A DNA stretch of 64,000 bases, from sequence record NC_028840.1; one strand, given 5' to 3'. The DNA comes from Escherichia phage slur09. Positions 17,890-55,559 of this stretch are shown here, piece by piece. The first letter of the stretch is position 1; each line of letters starts with the position of its first letter. The notes beneath the pieces are model-generated. The model saw nothing but the letters and a program-made list of their open reading frames with translations. It had not been told where the DNA came from and did not search any database. A program made the translations under genes and the position numbers.

Positions 17890-18657
17890 TTATTCAGCAG
17901 CCGCAGCTTTTGCATCCAGTTTAGCACGCTTAGCGGCACCATCATAGTCCTTAGCAACCAGACCACGACGAGACAGCATAGATTTAACACCGCGCTCAGA
18001 TTTACCAGTTTTCTCAGCGATCTCAGCAACAGTCATGTTAACCAGATCCAGACCTTCTAACAGATCTTCACGAGTTTTAGCACTTGAGGTTTCCTGTACC
18101 GGCATAGCAGCGATACGACCTTCACGAAGCAAACTCAGAGCTTTACCACGGATCTGCTTAATATTGCGACCGAAGTGAGCAGCGATAGCTTCAATAGTAG
18201 CACCAGCAATAACCTGATTAACAAAATCAGTTTCTTCATCCGGAGTGAAGGAACGAACAGCAGCAGCTTTTTCAGTTGGTTTAACAGAAGCAGTCATTTC
18301 CAGACTCAGGATCTTACCCTGTACCTGTTTAGCACCGAACTGACCACCAGCTACAGCAGCAGCGATTTCAGCATAGGTATACTGACCAGCATGAGCGTTC
18401 AGGAAATCAACCAGTTCAGCTTCCTGCTCAGGAGTCCACGGGGATTTCTGTACTTCGTTAGCTTTCTGTACTTCAAAACCTTCTTTACGCAGTTTAGAGC
18501 CAACAGAGCGAGCAGTAACATCTTTGCCAGTTTCAGCAGCCAGTTCAGTAGCGATAGCAGCTACTTGTTCTTGAGAGATTACAGAAACACCCAGAGCAGT
18601 GGCTTTTGCTTTCAGAGACTCGGTTACACCTTCTACGTTCCAGTTCAGTTTAGACAT
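17890..18657 (-). CDS. putative DNA-binding protein (D5-like) with internal repeats
   Basis: 255 aa; Ala/Lys-rich with repeated ...IRGKALSLL... segments. Confidence 0.5.
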   Translation of the reverse strand: MSKLNWNVEGVTESLKAKATALGVSVISQEQVAAIATELAAETGKDVTARSVGSKLRKEGFEVQKANEVQKSPWTPEQEAELVDFLNAHAGQYTYAEIAAAVAGGQFGAKQVQGKILSLEMTASVKPTEKAAAVRSFTPDEETDFVNQVIAGATIEAIAAHFGRNIKQIRGKALSLLREGRIAAMPVQETSSAKTREDLLEGLDLVNMTVAEIAEKTGKSERGVKSMLSRRGLVAKDYDGAAKRAKLDAKAAAAE

Positions 18658-19432
18658 TATTATTTTTCTCCAATAGTTCTTTAATCGACAGGATTTCTAT
18701 CCCATTCATTTCGGCTTTCTTATAAGATGAGGAAGAACGTTTTGATTCATCCTCACAGATTAGGTATTTGACGTCTTTGGTAACGGATTTCTTAACCGTA
18801 TATCCTAGACCTTCTAAATAGTTTGTTGCATCCGTTCTATTTGCAAAACCTTGCAAAGATCCGGTAATACATACTGTGATTCCGTTTGGCTGGGCAACTA
18901 AATCATCAGTAATGATAATATTAGCTTTTGCACCTCTGATACCAGTTGAGAATTTCCACGGTAATTCGATAACATCCTTGCCTTGTGGGGAATTTAGCCA
19001 GGCTTTATAGTTTTCTCCAGCCTTGCCGTCAGCCTTCACATCGTGGAAGCTAGTGCAATTTTGGGATAATTTCTTTGCTGCAACCTCTCCAATTAGAGGG
19101 ATTCCTAAAGAACCGAGAACTGAACCAAAGTCAATGTCTCCGCGAACTTTAGTATTTAATTCGCTAATTAACTTAGCGGCAACCTTGCTACCCACGGCTC
19201 TAACCAAATCTTCTTCGGTTAGGTAAAATAGTTCTGAAATCTTCGTCAGCTCCAGCTTCTCAATAGTTTTTGGACCAAAGCCCTTTAACTTCATTTTTGT
19301 ACAGAAGTTCTCAATTAACTTACTTGATTGCGCTGGACAGTTGGACTTATTCCGACAGAATAATTGTCCGTTGACAAGATCTAGCTTAGAACCACAAGAG
19401 GGACATTGTGTTGGAATTTCGATTTTCATCAA
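18650..19432 (-). CDS. ligB: NAD-dependent DNA ligase, C-terminal subunit (Zn finger-HhH-BRCT)
   Basis: 260 aa; CPSCGSKLDLVNGQLFCRN...CP zinc finger followed by HhH and BRCT-like region. Confidence 0.85.
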   Translation of the reverse strand: MMKIEIPTQCPSCGSKLDLVNGQLFCRNKSNCPAQSSKLIENFCTKMKLKGFGPKTIEKLELTKISELFYLTEEDLVRAVGSKVAAKLISELNTKVRGDIDFGSVLGSLGIPLIGEVAAKKLSQNCTSFHDVKADGKAGENYKAWLNSPQGKDVIELPWKFSTGIRGAKANIIITDDLVAQPNGITVCITGSLQGFANRTDATNYLEGLGYTVKKSVTKDVKYLICEDESKRSSSSYKKAEMNGIEILSIKELLEKNNNV

Positions 19433-19459
19433 ATTTCTTCCTTATCAATTTATATAAAT

Positions 19460-19488
19460 ATTATAGCAAGTATTTAAGCATTTAGCAA
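19460..19488 (-). promoter_or_regulatory. T5-type promoter (minus strand) between the two ligase ORFs
   Basis: rc TTGCTA-N17-TATAAT in the roughly 200-bp spacer. Confidence 0.6.
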
Positions 19489-19631
19489 CTACAATTTTAA
19501 CTAACTTTGCTTACCCTCACCATAACTTTCTATCCCTCAACTGAATGATAATAGTATATACCTAAGCGGCGAAAATGTCAATAACCACTTTATAATTCCG
19601 ATATGGTAGATGGGTAGCAAAGGGTTATGTA

Positions 19632-20603
19632 TTAATCGTATACTCGCTCTACTATGCACGGGATTACACCACCAGCACGAATCACTCGAATCTGGCAACC
19701 GATCTCTAGATCAAGAGAGTTAATATAATCAACGTTATTAAGAGTCGCTTTAACAATTGTAGCATCATCAATAATTACCGGTTCGAAATAACCAACTGGA
19801 GTTACTTTACCAGAAGCCCCTACCTGCCATTCAACTTTAGTAAGAGTTGTAATCTCGCCTTCTTCATCCTCTTTAATAGCGAATGCTCCACGAGGGAATT
19901 TATTAGTCCAGCCTTCGCGGAAGAATTTGTTGTTATCATTAATACGAACAACTTTACCGTCCGTCGGAATCCATTTAAAGAAGGAACGCACATTAACAAC
20001 TGTTAAGAAGTTCTCATTCTCCAGCCAAAGCATATCTTTTAAATATGCTTCTGTAATACCTACAGATTCAGCAGAACACTGGATACCATATGCAACGAAG
20101 ATTAAACCACCTTCCCCGATACGTTGTACGAAATCATCGCTATCTTTTAGGTTAATAGCACCAGAGGCAAAGTTACGTTTATTTTCTACTTCTTTTGTAA
20201 TTAGAACTTCACCAGTGATTTGAGTAGGTATTTTTTGGGAAATCTTTTTAGGGATATTCAGCAATCTTACGTTGCTTGTGACATCATTTCCCAGAATACC
20301 ATTGCCACGAGTTAGTGCTTGAACAAATTCTCCATTAATATATAACAGAGAAATCGCACAACCATCTAACTTATCAGTTTCTACCTGACCTAATGGGTTG
20401 AATGGGGGTTTATCTCCACGATTATAATAAACTTTCTGTAAAGAATACATACGATATAGATGTGGAATATCACCCTTAGGTCCGATCTCTTCTTCTAATG
20501 GGAAGCGTTTTACCAGGCAATCATACTCCTCATCAGAGATTAAAGACATACCTTGATAATATGCTTCTTGACAGCGTTTAATAAAGTCTTTTACATTAGT
20601 CAT
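19632..20603 (-). CDS. ligA: NAD-dependent DNA ligase, N-terminal subunit (adenylation and OB domains)
   Basis: 323 aa; KLDG adenylation motif (ETDKLDGCAISLLY) and LigA-type adenylation domain. Confidence 0.85.
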   Translation of the reverse strand: MTNVKDFIKRCQEAYYQGMSLISDEEYDCLVKRFPLEEEIGPKGDIPHLYRMYSLQKVYYNRGDKPPFNPLGQVETDKLDGCAISLLYINGEFVQALTRGNGILGNDVTSNVRLLNIPKKISQKIPTQITGEVLITKEVENKRNFASGAINLKDSDDFVQRIGEGGLIFVAYGIQCSAESVGITEAYLKDMLWLENENFLTVVNVRSFFKWIPTDGKVVRINDNNKFFREGWTNKFPRGAFAIKEDEEGEITTLTKVEWQVGASGKVTPVGYFEPVIIDDATIVKATLNNVDYINSLDLEIGCQIRVIRAGGVIPCIVERVYD

Positions 20604-26539: not shown

Positions 26540-26935
26540 TTAGTCATTTAATCCCGGAACATATATCCCAACACGGTTTAATTGTTCTTTAGCTTCTTTG
26601 AGAATATCTGGAGTGTACTCCCAAATATCATCTTCCACCTGTAAAAGATGGGGCGAACAACCATCATCCGGCACACGACATATGGCCAAACCACGTGGAT
26701 GGAACAAAGAGAAGTTTAGGGCAACAATCAATCCCATAGCAGACAATTCATTCCAATCCAATTCCCATCCCCCGGCGTATCCAGACAGGAAAACGCCAAT
26801 GCATGGATCATCTGTTTGCTGCTCAGGAAAAGTGAAGGAGGCTTGTCTTACCCCCCCCCCCAACCAACGTTGTAGCAGCTTCTCCGCACGTTTCACCAAA
26901 CTAGGATCAATCTGACGCCAATATACTTGTTCCAT
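26540..26935 (-). CDS. hypothetical protein, tandem paralog 1; contains an in-frame G11 homopolymer
   Basis: 131 aa; related to ORF 26945..27373 (shared ...CIG...GW.EL...MGL..ALN..LF.P...VPGL pattern). Confidence 0.5.
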   Translation of the reverse strand: MEQVYWRQIDPSLVKRAEKLLQRWLGGGVRQASFTFPEQQTDDPCIGVFLSGYAGGWELDWNELSAMGLIVALNFSLFHPRGLAICRVPDDGCSPHLLQVEDDIWEYTPDILKEAKEQLNRVGIYVPGLND

Positions 26936-26944
26936 TCTGCCTCC

Positions 26945-27373
26945 TTAAGCAGTTAAACCTGGGATCATATATCCGAAACGTCGAAGTTTTTGGATACCAT
27001 CATTCACTTCTTCTGGTGAGTAAGACCAACCGTAACGTTCATTAACTTGAAAACCAGGAGATTCACTAGTTTTATAGTTAACAACAAGGCGATGCTTAGC
27101 AGGCATAAACAGCTTATAGTTTAACGCAAAAACTAAGCCCATTTCGTCTAACTCTTTCCAGCCCACAATCTCTTCAAGACCATCCTCTACCTGCACAATT
27201 AAACCAATACAGGGGGCCTCATCAATATCATCTTTAAAAGCAAAGGAGATTTCGTTATTCTCACACCATATTTTCAAAGAGTTAATAGCCTCATTATATA
27301 GGCTAGCTGGGAGAGTACGCCAAAAGTTAACCAAAATTGGATTAGCTTCTTTAGAGAATACATTATTGAACAT
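26945..27373 (-). CDS. hypothetical protein, tandem paralog 2
   Basis: 142 aa; paralogous to 26540..26935. Confidence 0.5.
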   Translation of the reverse strand: MFNNVFSKEANPILVNFWRTLPASLYNEAINSLKIWCENNEISFAFKDDIDEAPCIGLIVQVEDGLEEIVGWKELDEMGLVFALNYKLFMPAKHRLVVNYKTSESPGFQVNERYGWSYSPEEVNDGIQKLRRFGYMIPGLTA

Positions 27374-27375
27374 AC

Positions 27376-27882
27376 TTACACCTTAAATTGTTGTAGAGCT
27401 TTACACATTTCAAGATCTGGACTAAATTCTAGCATATAGCTAACAGCTTTTAAATCTTGAAGATTTATCCCAGTCCTACCGTTGACTATAACCGTTGGAT
27501 ACTGATACATCATAGCACCCGCATCATCAAGCACACACCAATGTTTGAGCTTATGCTTTTCAACGAAGCGAAGAACAGAATTACCCCTAGATAATCCACC
27601 ACCAGTAAAATCCGTTGTACCAAGAAAACGATCGATAAGACCTAATCCGGTCATAATCTGAACGTTCTCCATCTCATTTCTGACAGAGAACCAAGATGAT
27701 ACTCCAACAATCATTATCGGAGAAGGACGAATAAAGTCCTGAAAAGCCTTGAGAAGCGGTTTGAAAACCCAGTCACTTCCAAAGAAAATCTTTTCATCAT
27801 CAGGTGCATGATGGTGGGAGATGCTCGAATTAAGCACCCCATCAATGTCTAGAAAAATAATTGGAGTATTACTTATTTCCAT
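27376..27882 (-). CDS. HAD-superfamily hydrolase-like protein
   Basis: 168 aa; N-terminal IIFLDIDGVLN motif. Confidence 0.5.
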   Translation of the reverse strand: MEISNTPIIFLDIDGVLNSSISHHHAPDDEKIFFGSDWVFKPLLKAFQDFIRPSPIMIVGVSSWFSVRNEMENVQIMTGLGLIDRFLGTTDFTGGGLSRGNSVLRFVEKHKLKHWCVLDDAGAMMYQYPTVIVNGRTGINLQDLKAVSYMLEFSPDLEMCKALQQFKV

Positions 27883-28051
27883 TTTTGTTCCTTTCTAAGA
27901 ACGTATCATACTCAACCGTATCAACATATATGACACCATAGTCATCGGATTTATAGTCCATTTCCCATAACTCACATCGATAGCACCAACTACCATCCGC
28001 CCATACAAATATATCATCGGGATGTGTATACACAGATTTAACTATAGACAT
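27869..28051 (-). CDS. hypothetical small protein
   Basis: ORF track, 60 aa, overlapping start/stop chain. Confidence 0.35.
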   Translation of the reverse strand: MSIVKSVYTHPDDIFVWADGSWCYRCELWEMDYKSDDYGVIYVDTVEYDTFLERNKNGNK

Positions 28052-28227
28052 ATCTGTTTCTCCTCATCTCCAGAGGATAACCATATGTTCTCTGTGGTAT
28101 AGATAATTTTATATGTGTATCCCAACCGTTCTCTTACACTAGGAAACCTGTAGGCAAACCTATAACACCAAGTGCCAGACTCAGTTATAAAAATATCCCA
28201 TTCATTATTTCTTGCTTCTCGACACAT
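28042..28227 (-). CDS. hypothetical small protein
   Basis: ORF track, 61 aa. Confidence 0.35.
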   Translation of the reverse strand: MCREARNNEWDIFITESGTWCYRFAYRFPSVRERLGYTYKIIYTTENIWLSSGDEEKQICL

Positions 28228-29023
28228 AAGGTCTACCCTCTAAATGAGCTTCTACACGAGCAATAAAATCAGGATCACTGAAAGCATCTACCGCACCTTT
28301 ACTCCAGTAAGGGATACCACGTTCTTCCAGCTGGTACATCTCATTACGAGTCATACCTTGATAGCCCAGTTCCGCCGCTAGGGCACTATCATAGTAGTTA
28401 ACAACCATAAGTTTCGCAGCAGTCAAATTAAGAACAGGAAATAATTCCCAGTAGAAGTTAATTACTTGGTTAGAGCAACCAACCACAACGATCATATCTT
28501 GACTGGTAATACCATCAAAAACATTGTACATTTCTGCGTATGTAGGAGCATGCTCTCCAAAGAAGATTACATTAGGTTTAACCCATTTATAATTATCTGG
28601 ATCAATAGAATTGTACCCTACATCAATAATCCGTTTATTGCTACTATTGTAGCTATCAGCTACAACAACCTCTTTTAAATATCCGTGAATGTGCAGAATG
28701 TCACTATGTGGAACGCCAGCACGCTCAATAAGGTCATCAACGTTGGTAGTCAAGTTTACTACTTGACCTGGATATTGTTTATACCATTCACCGATACGCA
28801 AATGTGCAAGATTGGGTTCAACAGTTTTTAGCTCTTCACGACGCTTGTTGTAAAACATATGGGTTTTATGATAAAAATTACCACGAAAGGCATGAATATT
28901 ACACACTTCTTCTAGATCATAATCATCCCATAATGCTTTACCATTAGCAGTATCAGTACGGAAGGCTCGTACACCACTTTCAACACTCAAACCTGCACCG
29001 CTAATAATAATTAATCTACGCAT
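28205..29023 (-). CDS. Sir2-family (sirtuin-like) NAD-dependent protein, no Zn ribbon
   Basis: 272 aa; SGAGLSVESGVRAFR, catalytic-type HIHGYL, VIFFGE and VVVGCS motifs; no CxxC pairs. Confidence 0.65.
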   Translation of the reverse strand: MRRLIIISGAGLSVESGVRAFRTDTANGKALWDDYDLEEVCNIHAFRGNFYHKTHMFYNKRREELKTVEPNLAHLRIGEWYKQYPGQVVNLTTNVDDLIERAGVPHSDILHIHGYLKEVVVADSYNSSNKRIIDVGYNSIDPDNYKWVKPNVIFFGEHAPTYAEMYNVFDGITSQDMIVVVGCSNQVINFYWELFPVLNLTAAKLMVVNYYDSALAAELGYQGMTRNEMYQLEERGIPYWSKGAVDAFSDPDFIARVEAHLEGRPYVSRSKK

Positions 29024-29237
29024 TTTTCACCTGTTCTCTGAAGTTTTGCCCAATACTGTCTAATAGCTCAGCTAATTCTTTATTGCCTTTCTCCATTAAG
29101 GTATTAGCAATAACTTCTAGCATAGTAGCACAGGATTCAACACCATCCTTATAGCCAGTTTCCCACTGCTGCATTAATGCATTTTCCAAAGCGGCATTTA
29201 AACCATTATCTGGTAGCATCGGCTTCGAGAATGCCAT
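29016..29237 (-). CDS. hypothetical protein
   Basis: ORF track, 73 aa. Confidence 0.4.
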   Translation of the reverse strand: MAFSKPMLPDNGLNAALENALMQQWETGYKDGVESCATMLEVIANTLMEKGNKELAELLDSIGQNFREQVKNA

Positions 29238-29430
29238 AAAGTTTCTCCTCTAGTTCCATAACACGATTTTCATAAGAGGCACGCAACTTTTCAATTGCCA
29301 GCGCACGCACTGTAACCTCATTAGAATTAATAGCTAATTGGGCCAGATCTTCTGTTTCCATACGTCCGTTGTAGATTAAGCGATATTTAAGGTGTTTCAC
29401 ATTCTTAGTCATTATTAAACTCCACTGCAA
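29206..29430 (-). CDS. hypothetical protein
   Basis: ORF track, 74 aa. Confidence 0.4.
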   Translation of the reverse strand: MQWSLIMTKNVKHLKYRLIYNGRMETEDLAQLAINSNEVTVRALAIEKLRASYENRVMELEEKLYGILEADATR

Positions 29431-29785
29431 CTGTTTCTAGGTCTTCATCAGAAAAATTAGAGTATACATCTTTAAGATATTGTTTAATGTCTTCAGTAAT
29501 ATCTTCGTATCCCTCAGGACTACGTTGGTATACTTTTAGTACTCTATTATAAACAAATTCAATATCATACTTTATTTCCCCCTCATCCTCGTCAAACAAG
29601 CAATCTGAGTTATACGGTGATACATCTAGATTTGTTTCTACCCAATCACCAATAATTGATGAATATCCAATACCCTCTAGATGGGAATAATCTCCAGTAG
29701 ATGCAAAAATAGCTTCCCTAAGATCGTCTACGCCAAGATGGAAATCACCACATGTAGACTCAACTATATAGGGCTTTAATTCCAT
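29405..29785 (-). CDS. hypothetical acidic protein
   Basis: ORF track, 126 aa. Confidence 0.45.
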   Translation of the reverse strand: MELKPYIVESTCGDFHLGVDDLREAIFASTGDYSHLEGIGYSSIIGDWVETNLDVSPYNSDCLFDEDEGEIKYDIEFVYNRVLKVYQRSPEGYEDITEDIKQYLKDVYSNFSDEDLETVAVEFNND

Positions 29786-29842: not shown

Positions 29843-29884
29843 ATAAAATAAAAGCCAGGTCGACTAGCAACCCGGCTGATTAGC

Positions 29885-31788: not shown

Positions 31789-31817
31789 ATTATAACTCAT
31801 TCGAGGGCGGATGTCAA
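31789..31817 (-). promoter_or_regulatory. consensus sigma70 promoter for nrdD (TTGACA-N17-TATAAT, minus strand)
   Basis: Perfect -35 and -10 hexamers with 17-bp spacer, about 30 bp upstream of the nrdD start; RBS AGGAG follows. Confidence 0.65.
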
Positions 31818-32009
31818 CAATATTTTACTGTAAAGTTCTGTAACATGATCTGAGTCAAAAAATTTTATTTGCCAACCTCTATTAAAAATCGTATAATCAC
31901 GCACTCGTGTATGCGATATAAAATGATTATCTAGTATCACACATCTCCCGTTAAAAGCAAGCAAATTTTTTATTTAAATGCAATATCATAGGCTTATTTA
32001 AAATTGTAG

Positions 32010-39108: not shown

Positions 39109-39393
39109 ATGCGGATTTATAACTCAAATTCATTAGGATTTAAACCATTGAGAAAACGTGCACAATCACCTCGTCAAATAAGAAAGGCTAATATTGGTGA
39201 GCCAGAAACACGTCTTCCACCCCCTCCAGAACAACGTTTAGTTTATCTGGACGAAGAATTAGCTGAACGCGAAAGAAAAGCTCAAGAAGAGATTGAGCGT
39301 AAGAAAATGTGTACTGCTCCAGCCTACTCCAAAGGGGCTTATCAGTATATCTATACAGCCGAGGAGGCTAAAGATGCGGGGCGTAAAAAATGA
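39109..39393 (+). CDS. hypothetical protein
   Basis: ORF track, 94 aa. Confidence 0.5.
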   Translation: MRIYNSNSLGFKPLRKRAQSPRQIRKANIGEPETRLPPPPEQRLVYLDEELAERERKAQEEIERKKMCTAPAYSKGAYQYIYTAEEAKDAGRKK

Positions 39394-39839
39394 AGATTAC
39401 TGAATTTAAAGGTGCTTATAGTTTCTTATCAAACTTTTATTTATCACCAATTACTTTCGAATATCTAAATGAAATATGGCATGCTGATACTGTAGAACAT
39501 GCTTTTCAGGCTATGAAATCCGACCAAAAAGATGATGTAGCTCATGTACTGCGCTCCCTAAATGCAGGTGTTGCCAAACGTAGAGGACGTAAATTAACTC
39601 TGCGCTCTGACTGGGATAAGGTAAAAGATGATGTAATGCTAGAGCTTTTACGGTTAAAGTTTGCAATCCCTGATTTGAGAGACAAACTGTTAGCAACAAA
39701 AAATGCAACTTTGATCGAAGGAAATACCTGGGGAGATACATATTGGGGTGTTTGCCGAGGCATCGGGGATAATACTTTAGGAGTTCTTTTGATGCAGGTA
39801 AGGTCTGAAATTAAAAGAAGCTTACAGTTAATAAATTAA
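39390..39839 (+). CDS. NADAR-domain (YbiA/DUF1768-like) protein
   Basis: 149 aa; YSFLSNFY, EHAFQAMK and GNTWGD...YWGV motifs resemble the NADAR family. Confidence 0.6.
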   Translation: MKITEFKGAYSFLSNFYLSPITFEYLNEIWHADTVEHAFQAMKSDQKDDVAHVLRSLNAGVAKRRGRKLTLRSDWDKVKDDVMLELLRLKFAIPDLRDKLLATKNATLIEGNTWGDTYWGVCRGIGDNTLGVLLMQVRSEIKRSLQLIN

Positions 39840-49194: not shown

Positions 49195-49383
49195 GTGGAA
49201 TTATACATAGTTTATGTTGTGTTTATTCAAGATAGAGAATACCCTGATGAATATAAACAAGGATATAGGTTAGCCAGAGCTACTTCTGAAGCCCAAGCTA
49301 TGGATAAGGTGGCAGATTATATGATTACAGTAGAAAACGTACACTATATCGACTACCTTGAAGCCTCAAAAGTAATTGACTAA
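49195..49383 (+). CDS. hypothetical small protein (GTG start)
   Basis: ORF-track ORF 49048..49383 overlaps two tRNAs at its 5' end; in-frame GTG after AGGGGA lies downstream of the tRNAs. Confidence 0.3.
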   Translation: MELYIVYVVFIQDREYPDEYKQGYRLARATSEAQAMDKVADYMITVENVHYIDYLEASKVID

Positions 49384-49392
49384 GGAGACTAT

Positions 49393-49578
49393 ATGTCTAA
49401 GTTTCAAGAACTCAAGCAAGAGCTAGAAGAGTGTGCCTGCCCTGAGTGTAGAGGAATTGGTGAAAGTTCTGATGCAGAAGCAGGAGATACTTTTTGCAAT
49501 ATCTGGGTTTGCCCAAATTGCAATGGTACAGGTATTAATCCTAACTGTGGTATTTCCCTAGATATTGAACGAGGATAA
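49393..49578 (+). CDS. hypothetical zinc-ribbon mini-protein
   Basis: 61 aa; CACPEC...CPNC. Confidence 0.45.
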   Translation: MSKFQELKQELEECACPECRGIGESSDAEAGDTFCNIWVCPNCNGTGINPNCGISLDIERG

Positions 49579-49679
49579 TACCTGTGAAACTAAAAGATTA
49601 TTATATTGGTTGGTTTGTGGGACTAGTAGTAGGATTTTCACTAGGCTATAATATGTATCAACTAATAAACTGATTACAT

Positions 49680-49756
49680 GGGGGTGTAATCGAATTGGCA
49701 TAGGTACTGGACTTAAAATTCAGGTTTTGTGGGTTCGAATCCCACCACCCCTACCA
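49680..49756 (+). tRNA. tRNA with Leu anticodon TAA on a short-variable-arm (type I) scaffold
   Basis: Acceptor GGGGGTG/CACCCCT, A73, D-loop AATTGGCAT, anticodon arm CTGGA-CTTAAAA-TTCAG, 5-nt variable loop, T-arm GTGGG-TTCGAAT-CCCAC. Confidence 0.6.
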
Positions 49757-49772
49757 AATTAAGGAAATAAGA

Positions 49773-49943
49773 TGTATAGACATCCACCTCCGCCAACACG
49801 TCGTTCTAGAGAAGTTATTCTCATGGAATTGACTAAAAACTTCAAGGCAACTCTTGAAGATAGAGATCTAGGCACGGATGAAGACATTGATTTTATTTGT
49901 AGACTATTAAAGATGAAACTGGAGAAACAACATGGCTAATCCT
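49773..49943 (+). CDS. hypothetical small protein (56 aa)
   Basis: ATG after AAGGAAATAAG; below ORF-track length cutoff; stop overlaps the next ORF start. Confidence 0.4.
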
Positions 49944-50138
49944 GAAATTACCGCACAACGTTTCATGCTTAAAGGCATGATTGCTGAGGCAGGTATAACT
50001 CAAGAGGTTGCAGATTTTCATAAGCAATTTCTTGACATTATAACTCTAGCTAAAGAGACTGGAGAAAAAGAACACGGAGCAGCAATTATGGCTATATCTC
50101 TTATTAGTCTAGACTTGGCTGAAGAGTCTGGAGTTTAG
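49932..50138 (+). CDS. hypothetical protein
   Basis: ORF track, 68 aa. Confidence 0.45.
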   Translation: MANPEITAQRFMLKGMIAEAGITQEVADFHKQFLDIITLAKETGEKEHGAAIMAISLISLDLAEESGV

Positions 50139-50168
50139 CTCCTCCAAACAGAATTTTTAAAAATGTAC

Positions 50169-50198
50169 TTGCCTTTTGCTTTAAATTTCTGGTATAAT
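50169..50198 (+). promoter_or_regulatory. T5-type promoter (TTGCCT -35)
   Basis: TTGCCT-N18-TATAAT. Confidence 0.5.
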
Positions 50199-50228
50199 AG
50201 TTATATAAATTGATGAAGGAGTTAACGA

Positions 50229-50504
50229 ATGCAAAATCGTGTTATAGCAACTGGTATTGAAAGTGCAATCTGTAAATCCTGGGAAGGCTGGGAAGGTGAG
50301 ATTGAATGGCTTTATTTCTACGATGTAGAACTTCTGCCGGAAGTTAAAACTAAATGTGTTGAAGCTGGCATGGCTCCAGATGCAAAAGCTGATATTGATA
50401 TTTCAATGTCTGAACTTAAAGGTCGTGTAATTACTGTTAGTGATGAGGGTGAAGAAGTTTTCGAACTTCCATTCTCCTTAACTGTCACTCCTAAGTTCGA
50501 CTAA
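50229..50504 (+). CDS. hypothetical protein
   Basis: ORF track, 91 aa. Confidence 0.5.
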   Translation: MQNRVIATGIESAICKSWEGWEGEIEWLYFYDVELLPEVKTKCVEAGMAPDAKADIDISMSELKGRVITVSDEGEEVFELPFSLTVTPKFD

Positions 50505-50527
50505 CTAATACAGCACTGAGCAAGTTC

Positions 50528-50567
50528 TTTAAAATTTGACTTGCTCAGTGCCATAAAACTTGATATA
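50528..50567 (+). terminator. long hairpin (13-bp stem GCACTGAGCAAGT/ACTTGCTCAGTGC) whose 3' arm overlaps the -35 of the next promoter
   Basis: Perfect 13-bp inverted repeat; TTGACT -35 lies inside the 3' arm; TATAAT follows 17-18 bp later. Confidence 0.55.
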
Positions 50568-50634
50568 ATATTTATCTAATTTGGAAACATATTTAAAAGT
50601 GTTTAAATGAGGCTTTTTGAATACTTCTAAATAT

Positions 50635-50722
50635 GGGCGTTTATTCCGTAAGTGGTAGCGGAGGGGATTGTAAATCCCTGGTCATTGCGACTCGAGTGGT
50701 TCGACTCCATTAACGCCCACCA
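50635..50722 (+). tRNA. tRNA-Tyr (anticodon GTA), long variable arm
   Basis: Acceptor GGGCGTT/AACGCCC, A73, anticodon arm GGGGA-TTGTAAA-TCCCT, long variable arm, encoded CCA. Confidence 0.75.
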
Positions 50723-50739
50723 AATTAAAGGTAAAGGAT

Positions 50740-51231
50740 ATGTATATTGATCGGATAATTCAAGAAGCTGCAAATAGGGGTATTATACAGTTGGGTTCAC
50801 CCGCTGATATAAACAAAGATCTAATATTAGAAAGCCTCACATTTGGTACAGCTAACTTTGGTCGCGATAGTAATCGTCGATATAGCTTGAAGTTATCTGC
50901 ACTATCTTTTATCAAGTATAACAAAAGTATTGGAGAAAAATCCAGCTGTGGTTTTATTTACGCAATAACTAACCCAGCTTGGGATAACTATGTAAAAATT
51001 GGTATGTCTTCTGATCCTAAAACAAGATTAGGAAATTACCAAACCTATTCTCCTTTACGTGATTATAAGTTAATACATTGGTCATTTTGGTTTAATGCTA
51101 GAGAAGCGGAGAAAATGCTTCATAATAGCTTTCCTGAACGGCTTAATGAATGGGTAGTGTTAGACAGAGGTGTAGACGAAATACTTTCCGAGTTTAACAA
51201 TCTATCCAATAAGCAATTTAAGTCCTGTTAG
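50740..51231 (+). CDS. T5orf172-domain protein (GIY-YIG-like, putative homing endonuclease family)
   Basis: 163 aa; GFIYAITNPAWDNYVKIGMS...RL.NYQTYSP motif shared with ORF 54257..54730. Confidence 0.6.
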   Translation: MYIDRIIQEAANRGIIQLGSPADINKDLILESLTFGTANFGRDSNRRYSLKLSALSFIKYNKSIGEKSSCGFIYAITNPAWDNYVKIGMSSDPKTRLGNYQTYSPLRDYKLIHWSFWFNAREAEKMLHNSFPERLNEWVVLDRGVDEILSEFNNLSNKQFKSC

Positions 51232-51298
51232 ACAAACTGGTAAAGTCACTACCCTTTCAAGGTAGGATTTGCGGGTTCGATCCCCGCACAGGACGCCA
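51222..51298 (+). tRNA. tRNA-Glu (anticodon TTC)
   Basis: Acceptor GTCCTGT/ACAGGAC, anticodon arm CTACC-CTTTCAA-GGTAG, T-arm GCGGG-TTCGATC-CCCGC; 5' end overlaps the last codons of ORF 50740..51231. Confidence 0.75.
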
Positions 51299-51306
51299 AT
51301 TTCTGC

Positions 51307-51383
51307 ATTCCTAGAGTGTTACTGGACAGCATGTCGGTCTCCAAAACCGTACGGTCTAGGTTCGAGTCCTAGTAGGTTTGCCA
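51307..51383 (+). tRNA. tRNA-Trp-like (anticodon CCA) with two U-U mismatches in the acceptor stem
   Basis: Anticodon arm CGGT-CTCCAAA-ACCG, T-arm CTAGG-TTCGAGT-CCTAG, acceptor ATTCCTA/TAGGTTT pairs 5 of 7. Confidence 0.45.
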
Positions 51384-51389
51384 AAATTT

Positions 51390-51464
51390 GCACCTTTAGC
51401 TGAGATGGATTAGCGCTTGCCTGAAGAGCTTGAGAGGTTCGTTCGATTCGAACAGGGTGCACCA
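51390..51464 (+). tRNA. tRNA-Phe (anticodon GAA)
   Basis: Acceptor GCACCTT/AGGGTGC, anticodon loop CTGAAGA, T-arm GTTCG-TTCGATT-CGAAC; anticodon stem has two U-U mismatches. Confidence 0.6.
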
Positions 51465-51481
51465 ATTTGAAGGAGCTGCTG

Positions 51482-51754
51482 ATGCATCCTGAAAACTTCT
51501 TTATTTACTGCGCTGATAAGTCGCTGAAACGTAGAATTAACAAAGTCTATCATTATCGTGCTAGTCAACAGCCTTATGTATATGCTTTTGACGGTGATCA
51601 CATTCCATTAGAACAATTATCCTGTGATTACATGATATTGAAGAACTTTGATGAGACAAAGATCTCAAGCGTTCATAATCGACAGAATCCATTAACGTGG
51701 AAATATAAGAAGAAAAAGAAAGGCATCAAATTCTTAAAAAATGTAGTTGCTTAG
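51482..51754 (+). CDS. hypothetical protein
   Basis: ATG after AAGGAG RBS (ORF track starts at 51467). Confidence 0.45.
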   Translation: MHPENFFIYCADKSLKRRINKVYHYRASQQPYVYAFDGDHIPLEQLSCDYMILKNFDETKISSVHNRQNPLTWKYKKKKKGIKFLKNVVA

Positions 51755-51775
51755 TTTCCAAAAGTTCTGTATAAT
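51747..51775 (+). promoter_or_regulatory. T5-type promoter
   Basis: TTGCTT-N17-TATAAT. Confidence 0.6.
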
Positions 51776-51804
51776 AATTACATAAATTGAACTGGAGAAG
51801 CAAC

Positions 51805-52029
51805 ATGACAGAACAAGAATTGAATGAACGTAAGCTGGTAATGCTTCGCTTACTAAATATTTTCTCTGGTATGGACGGTGGAATTGACTTTGTTCATCTA
51901 CGTTCTTTCGTAGAAGAAGCCGAAGGCGAATCTATCACTAAAATCCTTAAACACATGGGATTACTTTTAGATGCTGCTAATGTGGCTACTGAATATAAAC
52001 TAGAAGATCTACCGAAGCGTGTTAAATGA
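51805..52029 (+). CDS. hypothetical protein
   Basis: ATG after GGAGAAG (ORF track starts at 51787). Confidence 0.45.
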   Translation: MTEQELNERKLVMLRLLNIFSGMDGGIDFVHLRSFVEEAEGESITKILKHMGLLLDAANVATEYKLEDLPKRVK

Positions 52030-52217
52030 AACGATTAGTTAGATTTAAGTGTTGTGGTTCTGAACATATTTTCACATATCTTCGTGAATTTAAAATGTGT
52101 GATTGTGGTAAATCAGGCTATGACTCAGGAGACGGGTTCTACACCCGTACTCTAGGGAACTTCAATGATCTAGAATTTGAAGATCTCGAAAAACAAGATA
52201 AATCGACCGTTGGCTGA
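52026..52217 (+). CDS. hypothetical zinc-ribbon mini-protein
   Basis: 63 aa; CC...CDC pattern; 3' end overlaps the start of tRNA-Cys. Confidence 0.45.
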   Translation: MKRLVRFKCCGSEHIFTYLREFKMCDCGKSGYDSGDGFYTRTLGNFNDLEFEDLEKQDKSTVG

Positions 52218-52279
52218 ATGGCTTAGGCGAAGGATTGCAAATCCTTTTTATGTGAGTTCAAATCTCATGCGGTCGTCCA
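52204..52279 (+). tRNA. tRNA-Cys (anticodon GCA)
   Basis: Acceptor CGACCGT/GCGGTCG, anticodon arm AAGGA-TTGCAAA-TCCTT, T-arm GTGAG-TTCAAAT-CTCAT, encoded CCA. Confidence 0.75.
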
Positions 52280-52281
52280 AT

Positions 52282-52422
52282 TTGCTGAAAGAATTGTTAA
52301 ATCAATTCAGGCACGCGTAGGAACACTGTCTCCGTAATTGAAAGATGAGGCACGGTTTGGAGAGGTATGCTGCTACACGCTACGGTGCTAACTCCGTCTA
52401 GGTGAAAATCCTAGTCAGCAAT
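52282..52422 (+). ncRNA. tRNA-like RNA (about 141 nt) with 7-bp acceptor stem, D-like arm, T-arm and a roughly 59-nt insertion enclosed by an extended anticodon-type stem
   Basis: Perfect acceptor TTGCTGA/TCAGCAA; T-arm CTAGG-TGAAAAT-CCTAG; D-like hairpin GAATT...AATTC; 9-bp stem GCACGCGTAG/CTACGGTGC enclosing 52321-52379; no encoded CCA. Confidence 0.4.
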
Positions 52423-52431
52423 ATAAATTTA

Positions 52432-52514
52432 GGGTCGTTAGCCAAGCGGTTTGGCGGTGGACTGTTAATCCATGTCGAAAGACAACGTAGGTTCGAATCC
52501 TACACGGCCCGCCA
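52432..52514 (+). tRNA. tRNA with Asn anticodon GTT on a long-variable-arm (type II) scaffold
   Basis: Acceptor GGGTCGT/ACGGCCC, G73, D-arm GCCA/TGGC, anticodon arm GTGGA-CTGTTAA-TCCAT, 13-nt variable arm with GTC-GAAA-GAC hairpin, T-arm GTAGG-TTCGAAT-CCTAC. Confidence 0.6.
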
Positions 52515-52616
52515 AATTCTGTGTAGAGTTAAGTAAACCGGTAGCCAACCAGCTATCATTGCTGACATCGAATTCAGCCACAGATACCATTTTCATTAAT
52601 AACTGAGGAAACAAGC

Positions 52617-52802
52617 ATGTCCAAGAATGTAATTGCACAGTTAGAAGTTCATCGTGATAGCACTATCAACAATATTGAAGTTGAGAAGAAATACATCGAA
52701 GAACTTAAACATGATATACTAGTAAGTCTTAATCGTCTTAATGTACGAAAAGACTTTCTTAAAGAACTTAATGCAGCTATTGAAAAACTCAAAGCTGAGT
52801 AA
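52617..52802 (+). CDS. hypothetical protein
   Basis: ORF track, 61 aa. Confidence 0.45.
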   Translation: MSKNVIAQLEVHRDSTINNIEVEKKYIEELKHDILVSLNRLNVRKDFLKELNAAIEKLKAE

Positions 52803-52811
52803 ATGAATTAT

Positions 52812-52888
52812 GCGACCGGGGCTGGCTTGGTAATGGTACTCCCCTGTCACGGGAGAGAATGTGGGTTCGAATCCCATCGGTCGCGCCA
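52812..52888 (+). tRNA. tRNA-Asp (anticodon GTC)
   Basis: Acceptor GCGACCG/CGGTCGC, anticodon arm CTCCC-CTGTCAC-GGGAG, T-arm GTGGG-TTCGAAT-CCCAT, encoded CCA. Confidence 0.75.
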
Positions 52889-52914
52889 AACTAAACTAGC
52901 ACGAGAAATATGCT

Positions 52915-53262
52915 ATGATTAATGCTAAAGAAGAATTGTTACTTGCCCTAAAGAATACTAATTCTGAAGTTAAGTGTATTAAGATAGAATTCGGTTATTA
53001 TGGGGACAAAGAAGTTTGGGTATTACCCGTAGGTTATACAGAAAAAGATATTGAAGATTTTCTAAATAATCTAGACTTTAAATATGATTCTGGTTTCGGT
53101 GGACAATTGCTTTATGGTAACGTATGGTTTACTGATGGAACTTGGTTAGAACGTGGTGAATATGATGGTTCTGAATGGTGGGAATATAAGACTACACCAG
53201 CAATTCCAGAGGAATGTCGAACAATTAATGGTGAAGTAGATCATACATTACTATTAAATTAA
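52915..53262 (+). CDS. hypothetical protein
   Basis: ORF track, 115 aa. Confidence 0.5.
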   Translation: MINAKEELLLALKNTNSEVKCIKIEFGYYGDKEVWVLPVGYTEKDIEDFLNNLDFKYDSGFGGQLLYGNVWFTDGTWLERGEYDGSEWWEYKTTPAIPEECRTINGEVDHTLLLN

Positions 53263-53384
53263 CAAAATTTCAGTGCAGAACACGGAGCTAGCAATTCGGA
53301 AGTGCCGACTCATGATAGGCTGCCTATGTACTTGCGAAGCGGTCGTGTCCAAGACTCGGACTCTTGCACTGAAAACAATCAAAC

Positions 53385-53505
53385 ATTCTAGCGTGGTTGA
53401 TGGGGAAACCAGCTTGGCTAGGGCAGAAGCTCGTTCGATTCGAGTGAAAGAATGGTTCTCGTAAGTCCGCACAAGTGATAACAGGTTCGAGTCCTGTCTA
53501 GAATG
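53385..53505 (+). ncRNA. tRNA-like RNA (about 121 nt) with a roughly 53-nt insertion in the anticodon arm
   Basis: Perfect 7-bp acceptor ATTCTAG/CTAGAAT; D-arm TGGT/ACCA with GG-containing loop; anticodon-type stem CTTG/CAAG enclosing 53418-53470; T-arm ACAGG-TTCGAGT-CCTGT. Confidence 0.4.
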
Positions 53506-53514
53506 ACACTATAA

Positions 53515-53637
53515 AGTTTACTTATTATGTAGGTTCCGATAGATCGGCGGGTCTATTCTGGCATTTAAGAGAGGTCTCGCAAACTTCTTTGTCAGCCGTG
53601 GGGTTGATAGCCTCCAGGTGGCCTACACAATAAGTAA
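53515..53637 (+). repeat. 17-bp inverted repeat (TTTACTTATTATGTAGG / CCTACACAATAAGTAAA, one mismatch) flanking an 89-bp core
   Basis: Arms at 53515-53531 and 53621-53637 are reverse complements with a single mismatch; no ORF inside. Confidence 0.6.
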
Positions 53638-53654
53638 ATTTATTAAAAATTCAT

Positions 53655-53683
53655 TTGCTATTCTGCTTAATTATCTGTATAAT
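53655..53683 (+). promoter_or_regulatory. T5-type promoter
   Basis: TTGCTA-N17-TATAAT. Confidence 0.6.
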
Positions 53684-53715
53684 ATATTTTATAAAGTGAA
53701 GAGAAGGAAAGCAAA

Positions 53716-53913
53716 ATGAAAAAAGTTTTACTGCTGTCTGTATTCCTACTCACTGGTTGTTTTAAACTTGACTCAACCATTAATAAAGAGTATGAATTTG
53801 CTAAAAATTTCTGTGGCGGAGAGAGTAATATAAAGAATTTCTACATATATAGTACAATTCCTAGTACCGTTTATTGTGTAGACGGACGAATTATTAATAT
53901 TCCTCCACAATAA
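53716..53913 (+). CDS. small lipoprotein (lipobox LLTGC)
   Basis: 65 aa; MKKVLLLSVFLLTGC signal peptide with lipobox Cys. Confidence 0.55.
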   Translation: MKKVLLLSVFLLTGCFKLDSTINKEYEFAKNFCGGESNIKNFYIYSTIPSTVYCVDGRIINIPPQ

Positions 53914-53922
53914 AAGAATTAA

Positions 53923-53998
53923 CAGTGCGTAGCGCAGTTGGTAGCGTGGGAGCCTTGGATGCTTCGGGTCGCAGGTTCGAGTCCTGCCGCACTGACCA
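53923..53998 (+). tRNA. tRNA-Pro (anticodon TGG)
   Basis: Acceptor CAGTGCG/CGCACTG, D-arm GCGC/GCGT, anticodon arm GGAGC-CTTGGAT-GCTTC, T-arm GCAGG-TTCGAGT-CCTGC, encoded CCA. Confidence 0.8.
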
Positions 53999-54004
53999 AA
54001 CAAT

Positions 54005-54082
54005 TGCGGGTTAGATCTCTGGTAGAGATCGCTAGTCTCATAAGCTAGAAAGAGGTAGGTTCGATTCCTGCACCCGCTTCCA
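54005..54082 (+). tRNA. tRNA with CAT anticodon (Met/Ile2/initiator candidate), U1-U72 mismatch
   Basis: Acceptor TGCGGGT/ACCCGCT (first pair U-U), D-arm GATC/GATC, anticodon arm CTAGT-CTCATAA-GCTAG, T-arm GTAGG-TTCGATT-CCTGC. Confidence 0.6.
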
Positions 54083-54102
54083 TTTTAATAGAGGATTTCG
54101 AA

Positions 54103-54267
54103 ATGAAAGTATTTCGATTAGTAGTAAGTGACAAACGTTTAGGTAAGAATACCTCAAAATCCTTACTTGCTCATTATGGAAAAGACGAGAAAGAAGTAAT
54201 GGCGGAGTTTGGGATTAATCACCCTTACTTGAAAGTTCACTCTATTAAGGAAGTTTATGCTTATTAA
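54103..54267 (+). CDS. hypothetical small protein (54 aa)
   Basis: ATG shortly after the tRNA; below ORF-track cutoff; stop overlaps the start of ORF 54257. Confidence 0.35.
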   Translation: MKVFRLVVSDKRLGKNTSKSLLAHYGKDEKEVMAEFGINHPYLKVHSIKEVYAY

Positions 54268-54730
54268 CAAGGTGCTTCAAGCTCTAGATCTTCCAGAGCT
54301 CTTTACTATTACCGACTCCTTAATACATCGGTATATGGAAAAGTATAATGAAATCTCTGGTAAAAAAGGGAAACTAAAATCCTCAGAATTTAAGTTCTGT
54401 TATAGAATGGCAGCATTAAACCTCTTAAAGTATAAGAGGGAGCATAAAATTCCTATAACAGAAGGATTTGTCTATGTAATAGGTAATCCAGCATGGCCTG
54501 GACTATATAAGATAGGCATGACAGTAGATGTGAACGAAAGACTGTCTAGTTATCAAACATATTCGCCTTATCGTGATTACAAGTTATACCATTTCAGATT
54601 CTCCTCAGACAAGAGAAGAACTGAAAAAGCATTACATAACCTTCTGAAAGACTACAAAATATCAGGAGAATGGTTTGAAGTACCTCTGTTAGACGCCTTC
54701 AAACTATTAGTAGAAAATTTGGATTGCTAA
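54257..54730 (+). CDS. T5orf172-domain protein (GIY-YIG-like, putative homing endonuclease family)
   Basis: 157 aa; GFVYVIGNPAWPGLYKIGMT...RLSSYQTYSP motif, paralog of 50740..51231. Confidence 0.6.
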   Translation: MLINKVLQALDLPELFTITDSLIHRYMEKYNEISGKKGKLKSSEFKFCYRMAALNLLKYKREHKIPITEGFVYVIGNPAWPGLYKIGMTVDVNERLSSYQTYSPYRDYKLYHFRFSSDKRRTEKALHNLLKDYKISGEWFEVPLLDAFKLLVENLDC

Positions 54731-54798
54731 CTCAACTGGATAAGAGTACCGGACCTTTAATCCGTCAGTTCTGGGTTCGAATCCCAGGCAATCCACCA
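54721..54798 (+). tRNA. tRNA-Lys (anticodon TTT)
   Basis: Acceptor GGATTGC/GCAATCC, D-arm ACTC/GAGT, anticodon loop CCTTTAA, T-arm CTGGG-TTCGAAT-CCCAG, encoded CCA. Confidence 0.8.
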
Positions 54799-54816
54799 AT
54801 TTCAAGAAAAACTCAG

Positions 54817-54845
54817 TTGCTTGATGCTTAATTTCTTGTTATAAT
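54817..54845 (+). promoter_or_regulatory. T5-type promoter driving a 1.2-kb ORF-free tRNA/ncRNA transcript
   Basis: TTGCTT-N17-TATAAT; no ORF of 60 aa or more until 56023. Confidence 0.6.
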
Positions 54846-55083
54846 ATTTATATAAATTGATGAGGAGAAATCCTCATCATAGTTCACTAAGGTATTAGCT
54901 CGACCTAGGACTGGCTGCCAAAAAGCACGATCCCTTCTACTTGGGAGGAGTTCTAGATTAGTCCACTAGATTCAGTGGCAACTGAGTAGTGTATCGGGTT
55001 TGCGAGATGACGTAGTTCCTTCCGCTCGAAGCGAAGGTGCTGTAGTTACGCCGAGCTAATAGCCTTAGTAAACTAAAGAATTT

Positions 55084-55162
55084 GGGGAATGGGTCTGCAT
55101 GGAGTGGACACCTCGCTTGCACCGAGGACATCAGGACGGTTCGATTCCGTTATTCTCCACCA
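55084..55162 (+). tRNA. tRNA-Ala (anticodon TGC)
   Basis: Acceptor GGGGAAT/ATTCTCC (G3-U70 wobble), anticodon arm CCTCG-CTTGCAC-CGAGG, T-arm GACGG-TTCGATT-CCGTT, encoded CCA. Confidence 0.65.
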
Positions 55163-55167
55163 AATAC

Positions 55168-55244
55168 GCGTGATTGATGGAATTGGCATACATACCGTCC
55201 TTAGAAGTCGGGTTTTGAGGGTTCGAATCCCTTGTCACGCACCA
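55168..55244 (+). tRNA. tRNA with Leu anticodon TAG on a short-variable-arm (type I) scaffold
   Basis: Acceptor GCGTGAT/GTCACGC, A73, D-loop AATTGGCAT, anticodon arm CCGTC-CTTAGAA-GTCGG (one U-U), T-arm GAGGG-TTCGAAT-CCCTT; paralogous to the tRNA at 49680. Confidence 0.6.
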
Positions 55245-55356
55245 AATTTGATGGTCAGAGTAAATTAAACCTACTATCTCGGTTGAGCTGTTTTAATGGG
55301 TTCGAATCCCAGCGAGGCGTAACTGCCTGGTGTGATAGAGGCATCATCTTATTATT

Positions 55357-55447
55357 GGAAGAGCAAATCGAATTGGCGACGAAAACCGCTTGGAAAGTGG
55401 CTGACTGGTAAAACGGCTTGAGAGTTCAAATCTCTCCTCTTCCGCCA
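55357..55447 (+). tRNA. tRNA-Ser (anticodon GGA), long variable arm
   Basis: Acceptor GGAAGAG/CTCTTCC, G73, anticodon arm CCGC-TTGGAAA-GTGG, long variable arm, T-arm GAGAG-TTCAAAT-CTCTC, encoded CCA. Confidence 0.65.
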
Positions 55448-55554: not shown

Positions 55555-55559
55555 AGTCT

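Follow-up and report, generated by a model that had tools for sequence, protein, structure and literature searches.

About 2% of sequenced phages, from several families, carry a canonical sirtuin that is free of zinc. One such gene lies in Escherichia phage slur09, of which we analyzed a 64,000-nucleotide stretch (record NC_028840.1; hereafter, the window). A single ATG-to-stop open reading frame (ORF) of 272 amino acids (aa), located at 28205..29023 between nrdD and the gene for a replication-origin-binding protein, had been described in an original prediction as a Sir2-family protein lacking the zinc ribbon. That description did not state the strand, which is minus. The ORF is the ortholog of phage T5 gene T5.102, annotated "Sir2-like" since 2005 ('putative Sir2-like protein', AY543070; PHROG 2162). 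The two products have the same length and 94% aa identity and are encoded in the same operon, with no difference of substance between them: T5, a sister Tequintavirus, has the same gene. The gene, the absence of its zinc ligands, and a hypothesis of RNA repair are all already published (T5.102 annotation, PMC5107563, PMC9503650). In the literature, we found no experimental work on T5-type sirtuins, and the gene-essentiality papers that we checked do not mention the gene.

We examined whether the protein is a sirtuin at all. All motifs named in the original prediction (GAGxS, FR, HG, FFGE, and VVGCS) can be read in the translation, as G9-A-G-L-S13, F21-R22, H113-G114, F154-F155-G156-E157, and V180-V-G-C-S184, together with T93-N94-V95-D96. 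Profile and structure searches had been proposed as checks, and those against Pfam, PHROG, and the PDB all placed the protein in the sirtuin family. Pfam SIR2 (PF02146) matched with E=5.9e-25 and 88.7 bits (cutoff 24) over profile positions 1-178 of 180, PHROG 2162 'Sir2' with E=2e-120, and the sequence of Escherichia coli CobB (PDB 1s5p) with E=6e-17; with such values, the family assignment is far beyond chance. An AlphaFold2 model built from 47 sequences reached a predicted local distance difference test score (pLDDT) of 91.7 and a predicted template modeling score of 0.90. When this model was compared with the PDB by Foldseek, the top 50 matches were all canonical sirtuins, the best being CobB 1s5p (E=1.3e-17, template modeling score 0.85), followed by Archaeoglobus Sir2 (Af-Sir2) and SIRT5. 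On this model, the T5.102-type protein is a sirtuin with a Rossmann domain and a small domain.

The catalytic residues are likewise preserved. His113 of the H-G motif, read directly from the sequence at 28685..28687 (minus strand), is intact, as had been claimed; it is invariant in 47 homologs and present in 146 of 150 cluster representatives (two lack the column and two are fragments). The same 47 homologs share G9AG, S13, F21-R22, N94, D96, FGE, and GxS, as well as T93-N94-V95-D96, F155G156E157, and G182CS184, and the catalytic residues do not change across homologs at 49-95% identity. The gene is under purifying selection, with a ratio of nonsynonymous to synonymous substitution rates (dN/dS) of ∼0.11 (range 0.10-0.12 against five other Tequintavirus alleles). 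Judged by these residues, the protein is a catalytically intact and apparently active enzyme that uses nicotinamide adenine dinucleotide (NAD+).

We then compared the protein with the known types of sirtuin. A YxxR pocket motif, Y58-N-K-R61, is encoded at 28841..28852 (minus strand) and is the counterpart of Y102/R105 in SIRT5 and Y92/R95 in CobB. In the alignment with CobB, Y58 and R61 fall on 'FYNARR', and Y58, R61, and R62 are invariant within the phage clade, as are all NAD-binding residues and V152, F155, and V187, the counterparts of the residues lining the acyl-lysine tunnel of CobB. Because the Y58/R61 pocket is invariant, an anionic group on the sirtuin substrate would be expected. 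CobB and SIRT5 (PDB 1s5p, 6rxj, and 3riy) share with the phage protein the fold, the NAD and catalytic motifs, a small domain of similar length, and the YxxR pocket, which in these enzymes recognizes acidic acyl groups. However, identity to them is 20-25%, the four zinc ligands are gone, the substrate loop 'VYP' has become 'VIN', and, unlike CobB and SIRT5, the protein is encoded by a phage and has a phosphatase gene as its neighbor. CobB-type deacylases are the nearest families in NCBIfam, but the score against the CobB equivalog NF040867 is 90.6 bits, with a cutoff of 320. By these comparisons, the phage sirtuin is a relative of CobB and not its ortholog, and its sequence and modeled fold mark it as a sirtuin of class III (CobB/SIRT5-like) type.

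Defense-associated SIR2 NADases also lack a zinc ribbon, and the original prediction had taken the absence of zinc as a sign of such an NAD+-depleting effector. That part did not hold, and a defense-type NADase SIR2 was rejected: none of the PADLOC defense-system models matched the protein at E<=1, and its PDB matches, by sequence and by fold, are to canonical sirtuins only. The defense enzymes (ThsA, DSR1/2, SIR2-HerA, and SPARSA; Pfam SIR2_2) belong to the same Sir2 superfamily, but the phage protein matches PF02146 and not SIR2_2, none of them is among its top 50 fold matches, and it is encoded by the phage and not by the host. It also keeps YxxR, and what remains of its zinc module is folded. 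It is a single-domain protein whose neighbors are a HAD protein, DUF7415 proteins, and small ORFs, and no HerA, TIR, SLOG, or pAgo partner or DSR C-terminal domain is fused to it or encoded nearby. A Macro-domain gene, the hallmark of SirTM, was not found in the eight flanking ORFs. Among distant relatives, sirtuin domains are fused to WG repeats, GIY-YIG, and RHS, which is uninformative about function.

The absence of a CxxC zinc module was borne out. The protein has two cysteines, C41 and C183, and none between H113 and F155; with just two, no Cys4 (CxxC...CxxC) zinc site is possible. The zinc ribbon is replaced by a cysteine-free, confidently modeled three-stranded β-sheet, the remnant of the module, at residues 114-152 (28568..28684, minus strand; strands 114-122, 131-134, and 147-152, pLDDT 90-97). 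In the alignment, the first zinc ligand, C1, corresponds to V121 and the second, C2, to about N129, and the position of the second CxxC knuckle is taken by an aromatic D-x-Y-x-W stretch. Of the 120 closest homologs (49-95% identity), 85 allowed the segment from the catalytic His to FGE to be delimited by a motif search, and in each of these 85 it has zero to two cysteines. Farther out, the best 146 representatives of clusters built at 50% identity include 88 in which CxxC...CxxC is retained around the same [DE][IV]GY strand and 48 with zero or one cysteine; zinc-binding relatives are found at 36-48% identity. A rough neighbor-joining tree, from which the zinc-module columns were excluded, placed the query in a clade of 41 representatives, 38 of them without zinc ligands, and pointed to a zinc-binding ancestor. 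As far as the alignment and tree can tell, zinc loss is derived and common to the whole clade. Loss of the ligands was noted in 2016 for the sirtuins of Vibrio phages KVP40 and phi-ST2, with salt bridges proposed as a stand-in, in a paper that also names T5 as a carrier of the gene (PMC5107563).

The original prediction held such a protein to be unusual in a phage, which the distribution of the gene contradicts. Megablast found it in 232 phage records, nearly all of which label it Sir2 or NAD-dependent deacetylase; the best match was Salmonella phage SP01 (Tequintavirus), at 98% nucleotide identity. By tblastn, homologs were present in 1006 of 50,697 phage records, the carriers including T5-like phages, Vequintavirinae, Mydovirus, phi92-like phages, KVP40-like Vibrio phages, and jumbo phages, and the gene is syntenic in all T5-like loci examined. 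The KVP40 and phi-ST2 Sir2/CobB proteins (PMC5107563) are homologous at 41-42% identity over 76% of the protein; these phages belong to the Straboviridae and have no HAD, RNA ligase, or DUF7415 gene within 5 kb of the sirtuin gene. When 185,579 reference genomes of bacteria and archaea were searched with sequence patterns, just four weak loci emerged, of which the best has 41% identity. This sole fairly close relative (L069, 6001-6546) is on a 43-kb contig of a metagenome-assembled genome labeled 'Bacilli bacterium', which may be a phage contig binned into that genome. By this pattern-based comparison, the clade is common in phages and essentially restricted to them.

Within the T5-like phages, the sirtuin is more variable than its surroundings. 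When Epseptimavirus loci (L009 and L048-L051) were compared with the Tequintavirus region at 26540-29430 of the window, the sirtuins were 51-52% identical, whereas the HAD proteins were 90-91% and the DUF7415 proteins 71-75% identical. That the sirtuin is far more diverged than the flanking genes suggests that, at a fixed locus, it has undergone allelic replacement or is mosaic. Some divergent alleles of the phage clade also carry an insertion of ∼25 aa after residue 50.

We next considered the genes that accompany the sirtuin. In the T5 record, T5.100 is preceded by an annotated promoter and T5.107 is followed by a terminator, so that T5.100-T5.107 form one operon, which is early and non-essential. 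In this operon, 0.5 kb downstream of the sirtuin gene, lies the gene for a HAD_SAK_2 phosphatase (27376..27882, minus strand; T5.105 ortholog, 168 aa) that matches PF18143, 'HAD domain in Swiss Army Knife RNA repair proteins', with E=4e-20. Its catalytic motifs DxD, S, R, and DD are invariant, and an AlphaFold2 model (pLDDT 94.3) shows a capless HAD fold. The sequence had no match in the PDB at E<=10, and the fold gave only weak matches to capless HADs (KdsC and MDP-1, with the PNKP phosphatase at rank 36), which do not settle the substrate class.

The pairing of the two genes is stable in T5-like phages. A full-length HAD gene adjoins the sirtuin gene in 33 of 33 Tequintavirus, Epseptimavirus, and L040 loci examined and, in four cases (L015, L016, L017, and L023), directly abuts the stop codon of the sirtuin gene. 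Three groups of divergent T5-like contigs (L073, L076/L077, and L081) have the inverted order of HAD gene, T5.100-like gene, and sirtuin gene, with the genes still together; the T5.100 homolog between HAD and sirtuin genes is seen in L076 and L081. In phage DT57C, all that remains is a 90-aa ORF (L083, 2354-2626) in which sirtuin residues 169-216 are fused to HAD residues 128-168. Since both genes are destroyed in this viable phage, laboratory growth does not require the sirtuin-HAD module, which was lost as one unit; DT57C is a natural double deletion of the two genes in a laboratory-studied T5-like phage. We note that the annotation of the HAD gene is confused. PHROG 18062, labeled 'Sir2 (NAD-dependent deacetylase)', is in fact the C-terminal half of HAD_SAK_2 (E=4e-58, HAD residues 77-168; L002, 21141-21644). 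The label probably originated in fusion remnants like that of DT57C, and it has spread to many RefSeq records, which call the HAD protein 'Sir2'. In SP01, the HAD protein is annotated as a 92-aa piece only, though the 168-aa ORF is intact.

A second association is with RNA ligase 1. Iyer, Burroughs, Anantharaman, and Aravind proposed in 2022, on computational grounds only, that the main clade of phage sirtuins removes RNA 2′-phosphates by ADP-ribosyl transfer in the manner of KptA/Tpt1 (PMC9503650, section 3.7.3). They cited three supporting neighborhoods, the second comprising Rnl, cREC, kinase, and MazG genes and the third comprising the sirtuin and a 'Swiss-army-knife' HAD gene, as typified by T5-like phage SP15. 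The window shows the third type, and we could confirm the second in related loci. In phage Bas55, an Rnl1-type RNA ligase gene (PF09511), a cREC_REC gene (PF20274, described as a 'cyclic-phosphate processing' domain), and the sirtuin gene follow one another, alongside a divergent AAA_33 kinase and a calcineurin-like phosphoesterase gene, with tRNA genes nearby. In all, the sirtuin gene is clustered with Rnl1-type RNA ligase, cREC_REC, Pnk-like kinase, metallophosphoesterase, and MazG genes in 14 Vequintavirinae-like and Mydovirus-like loci, where the sirtuins share 47-62% identity with the query.

The other members of the T5 operon lead to the same ligase. Its last two genes encode DUF7415 proteins: the T5.106 ortholog, with two repeats (26945..27373, minus strand; PF24187, E=2.6e-35; PHROG 2502), and the T5.107 ortholog (26540..26935, minus strand; Pfam E=1.7e-28), a paralog of the former at 31-32% identity. 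In the T4-like phage Aeh1 (L084, 3968-6529), rnlA lies between the genes for a HAD homolog (ORF303c) and for a DUF7415 homolog (ORF299c), all within 2.6 kb, and ORF299c, the homolog of the T5.107 ortholog, lies directly downstream of rnlA; DUF7415 may thus be an RNA-ligase-associated factor. From the Vequintavirinae- and Mydovirus-like loci and from Aeh1, the sirtuin, HAD_SAK_2, and DUF7415 are each tied to RNA ligase 1 in different phage families. The inversion of the HAD-sirtuin order, the co-deletion in DT57C, the flanking of rnlA by HAD and DUF7415 genes in Aeh1, and the HAD gene beside a NARP1-type pair, described below, are additions to the work of Iyer et al. In the 64-kb window itself, we found no homologs of RNA ligase, 2H, or cREC, nor of the kinase, phosphoesterase, MazG, Nampt, Nmnat, or Nudix genes.

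Links to NAD+ and ADP-ribose (ADPR) metabolism are also seen in related phages; the original prediction had suspected such a link from the presence of an NAD-dependent ligase and a NADAR protein in this genome. Several lineages have Nampt-like genes at a distance of 1.6-8 kb from the sirtuin gene. In the jumbo phage Muenster, the sirtuin gene is located between Nampt/NadR-like genes and a Nudix gene, and in Mydovirus-like loci, the Nampt-like genes are 7-8 kb away. HAD_SAK_2 homologs were found immediately upstream of a Prs-like and NAPRTase-like pair in Serratia phage ChuuTotoro (Vequintavirinae; L074, 6001-9217) and in a 152-kb JGI contig (L075, 6001-9569). Such a pair is the NARP1 architecture, and that HAD-containing cluster has no sirtuin. 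NARP1 operons are known to recruit an accessory ADPR-1″-phosphate phosphatase, which is a Macro domain (10.64898/2026.01.28.702374). By analogy with this Macro-domain Adpp, HAD_SAK_2 may serve NAD+ reconstitution as an accessory phosphatase not described before. T5-like phage Bas30 carries the NARP3 pathway (PMC13464706), and no NARP1 genes were found in the window.

Taken together, the phosphatase pairing that survives rearrangement, the joint loss of both genes, and the three-way association with RNA ligase 1 point to RNA end-healing or to the processing of phosphorylated ADP-ribose. Following Iyer et al., we tentatively read the operon as, most likely, an accessory module for the repair of RNA (tRNA) damage and the healing of RNA ends, a pathway that we infer and hold at somewhat below an even chance. 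The T5.102-type sirtuin, as a class III enzyme, would cleave NAD+ and transfer its ADP-ribose. Its acceptor would be a phosphate on damaged RNA, namely, the 2′-phosphate that remains after a 2′,3′-cyclic end has been opened, and ADP-ribosylation would lead to its removal; the HAD phosphatase would then clean up a remaining terminal phosphate or the phospho-ADP-ribose by-product. Sirtuins work in two steps, in which an oxygen nucleophile attacks C1″ with loss of nicotinamide and the 2″-OH of the ribose attacks next. Tpt1 takes the same two steps, with an oxygen nucleophile at C1″ and nicotinamide loss followed by attack of the ribose 2″-OH (PMC11417386), and the two chemistries are thus formally parallel. 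The RNA 2′-phosphotransferase Tpt1/KptA, as the proposed functional analog, is also NAD+ dependent, releases nicotinamide, and passes through an ADP-ribosylated intermediate; however, it has an ADP-ribosyltransferase fold and not a Rossmann fold, there is no homology between the two, and for sirtuins, an activity of this kind has only been proposed. The more specific claim, that the enzyme is not a deacylase and directs ADP-ribose to a phosphate oxygen such as that of an RNA 2′-phosphate in place of acyl-lysine, with HAD_SAK_2 processing the phospho-ADP-ribose or the RNA end, is one that we consider doubtful.

Several points weigh against an RNA-repair role. We know of no sirtuin with demonstrated activity on an RNA phosphate. 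The phage enzyme is acidic (isoelectric point [pI] 5.7; median 5.2 over 120 homologs), which is unusual for an RNA-binding enzyme, pI being a crude proxy for surface electrostatics. T5-like phages would need host ligases, because no RNA ligase is encoded in the window; the HAD gene is missing from three T5-like loci (L058, L061, and L062); and phi92-like phages have the sirtuin but none of the partner genes. Within one phage family, moreover, whole genomes are collinear and synteny is weak evidence, and the occurrence of the HAD family beside a NARP1-type pair without a sirtuin points to ADP-ribose metabolites rather than RNA ends.

The tunnel residues V152, F155, and V187 are, in addition, just what a plain protein lysine deacylase would need, and such an enzyme is almost as likely as the RNA-repair module. 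The phage would have its own CobB-like enzyme to strip acetyl, succinyl, or malonyl groups (given YxxR) early in infection, perhaps from host or phage translation, transcription, or ligase enzymes inactivated by acylation. The adjacency to HAD and RNA ligase genes would then reflect a clustering of early nucleic-acid-metabolism genes, or the ligases would be targets. Every class III catalytic, NAD-binding, and acyl-lysine-tunnel residue is invariant; the closest sequences and folds (CobB, Af-Sir2, and SIRT5) are all deacylases; and a CobB fragment with which we compared the protein has a similarly acidic pI. The sirtuin gene of phi92-like and KVP40-like phages has no repair partners, the Mydovirus sirtuin gene directly abuts a DNA ligase gene, the NAD-salvage neighbors in jumbo phages fit any NAD-consuming enzyme, and the role has been argued for (PMC5107563). 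On the other hand, the deacylase reading assigns no role to a phosphatase whose gene remains beside that of the sirtuin despite rearrangement and disappears along with it, and it does not explain why sirtuin, HAD, and DUF7415 recur beside RNA ligase 1. The score against the CobB equivalog is far under its cutoff, and the host already has CobB, which is reported to restrict phage rather than help it (PMC4271551).

If the NAD neighborhoods are given more weight, the sirtuin and HAD protein might instead act on small molecules such as NAD+, phospho-ADP-ribose, or ADPR-based immune signals and so blunt defenses centered on NAD. The link to NAD/ADP-ribose metabolism that had been put forward is reasonable, since related phages place the gene near NAD-salvage and reconstitution genes, but the counter-defense role suggested with it is an unlikely one. 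It would account for HAD_SAK_2 upstream of the NARP1-type pairs in ChuuTotoro and the JGI contig, for which the recruitment of an accessory phosphatase by NARP1 operons is a precedent, and for the nearby Nampt-like genes; T5-like phages also depend on NAD+ (NAD-dependent ligase, NADAR), and Bas30 has NARP3. Yet the sirtuin has no PADLOC match, a free NADase would deprive the NAD-dependent ligase of the phage of NAD+, and canonical sirtuins require a substrate nucleophile for NAD+ turnover. In addition, the accessory phosphatase known from NARP1 operons belongs to the Macro domains and not to the HADs, the window lacks detectable NARP1 genes, and our literature search found no paper tying a canonical sirtuin to counter-defense. 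Very improbable, and the least likely reading of all, is that loss of the zinc site left a decayed, inactive, or scaffolding protein. Zinc is generally regarded as structurally required in canonical sirtuins, and the gene is dispensable, with DT57C retaining a fragment only. However, the low dN/dS, the invariance of all catalytic residues down to 49% identity, and a confident model that includes the former zinc module all speak against decay, and the zinc-free state of 38 of the 41 clade representatives indicates that it was kept over long evolution.

The remaining genes of the operon are small and on the minus strand. The operon is bounded upstream by a terminator-like hairpin after nrdD (29853..29877, minus strand), at the place where the T5 record annotates a terminator followed by a promoter. 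Its first gene encodes a very acidic protein of 126 aa and pI 4.05 (29405..29785; T5.100 ortholog, PHROG 11748), which we considered as a cREC homolog and rejected, there being no similarity and no Pfam match. It is followed by a T5.101-like ORF of 74 aa (29206..29430; PHROG 5236) and by one of 73 aa whose stop overlaps the sirtuin start (29016..29237; PHROG 5827). Between the sirtuin and HAD genes lie two paralogous ORFs of PHROG 5116, one of 61 aa (28042..28227), which is variably present in T5-like loci, and one of 60 aa (27869..28051), which is absent in L015, L016, L017, and L023. The operon thus holds two tandem duplications, of the DUF7415 genes (26540-27373) and of the PHROG 5116 mini-genes (27869-28227).

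Elsewhere in the window, the two NAD-linked genes named in the original prediction were found. The NAD-dependent DNA ligase (18650-20603) is split on the minus strand into ORFs at 19632..20603 (adenylation and OB, 323 aa) and 18650..19432 (HhH and BRCT, 260 aa), ∼200 bp apart, and the same split is annotated in SP01. The NADAR protein is encoded at 39390..39839 on the plus strand (E=7e-22) in a nucleotide-metabolism block that also holds a gene for an Rv2179c-like 3′-5′ exoribonuclease-type protein (41015-41716, plus strand). A cluster of 21 tRNA genes (45391-58219, plus strand), typical of T5-like phages, is relevant to host defenses that target tRNA. At 31789-31897, a perfect sigma-70 consensus promoter (TTGACA-17-TATAAT) lies upstream of nrdD on the minus strand, and a divergent 11/12 sigma-70 match on the plus strand is directed toward a PhoH-like gene.

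Whatever its function, the phage sirtuin, as modeled, shows that the small domain can fold without zinc. The function is now directly testable, as there are partner genes (HAD_SAK_2, DUF7415, and the RNA ligase 1 clusters), a natural double knockout in DT57C, and a published chemical hypothesis. A deacylase function would make the sirtuin a clean example of a viral enzyme that rewrites the host acylome. If it is directed to phosphate, it would be the first sirtuin of canonical fold with a nucleic-acid or phosphate substrate, and phage tRNA repair would be tied to the NAD+/ADPR arms race, consistent with the occurrence of the HAD family in NARP1-type operons. Should it remove RNA 2′-phosphates, nucleic acids would join the substrates of sirtuin chemistry, and a new anti-defense repair route would be open to phages.

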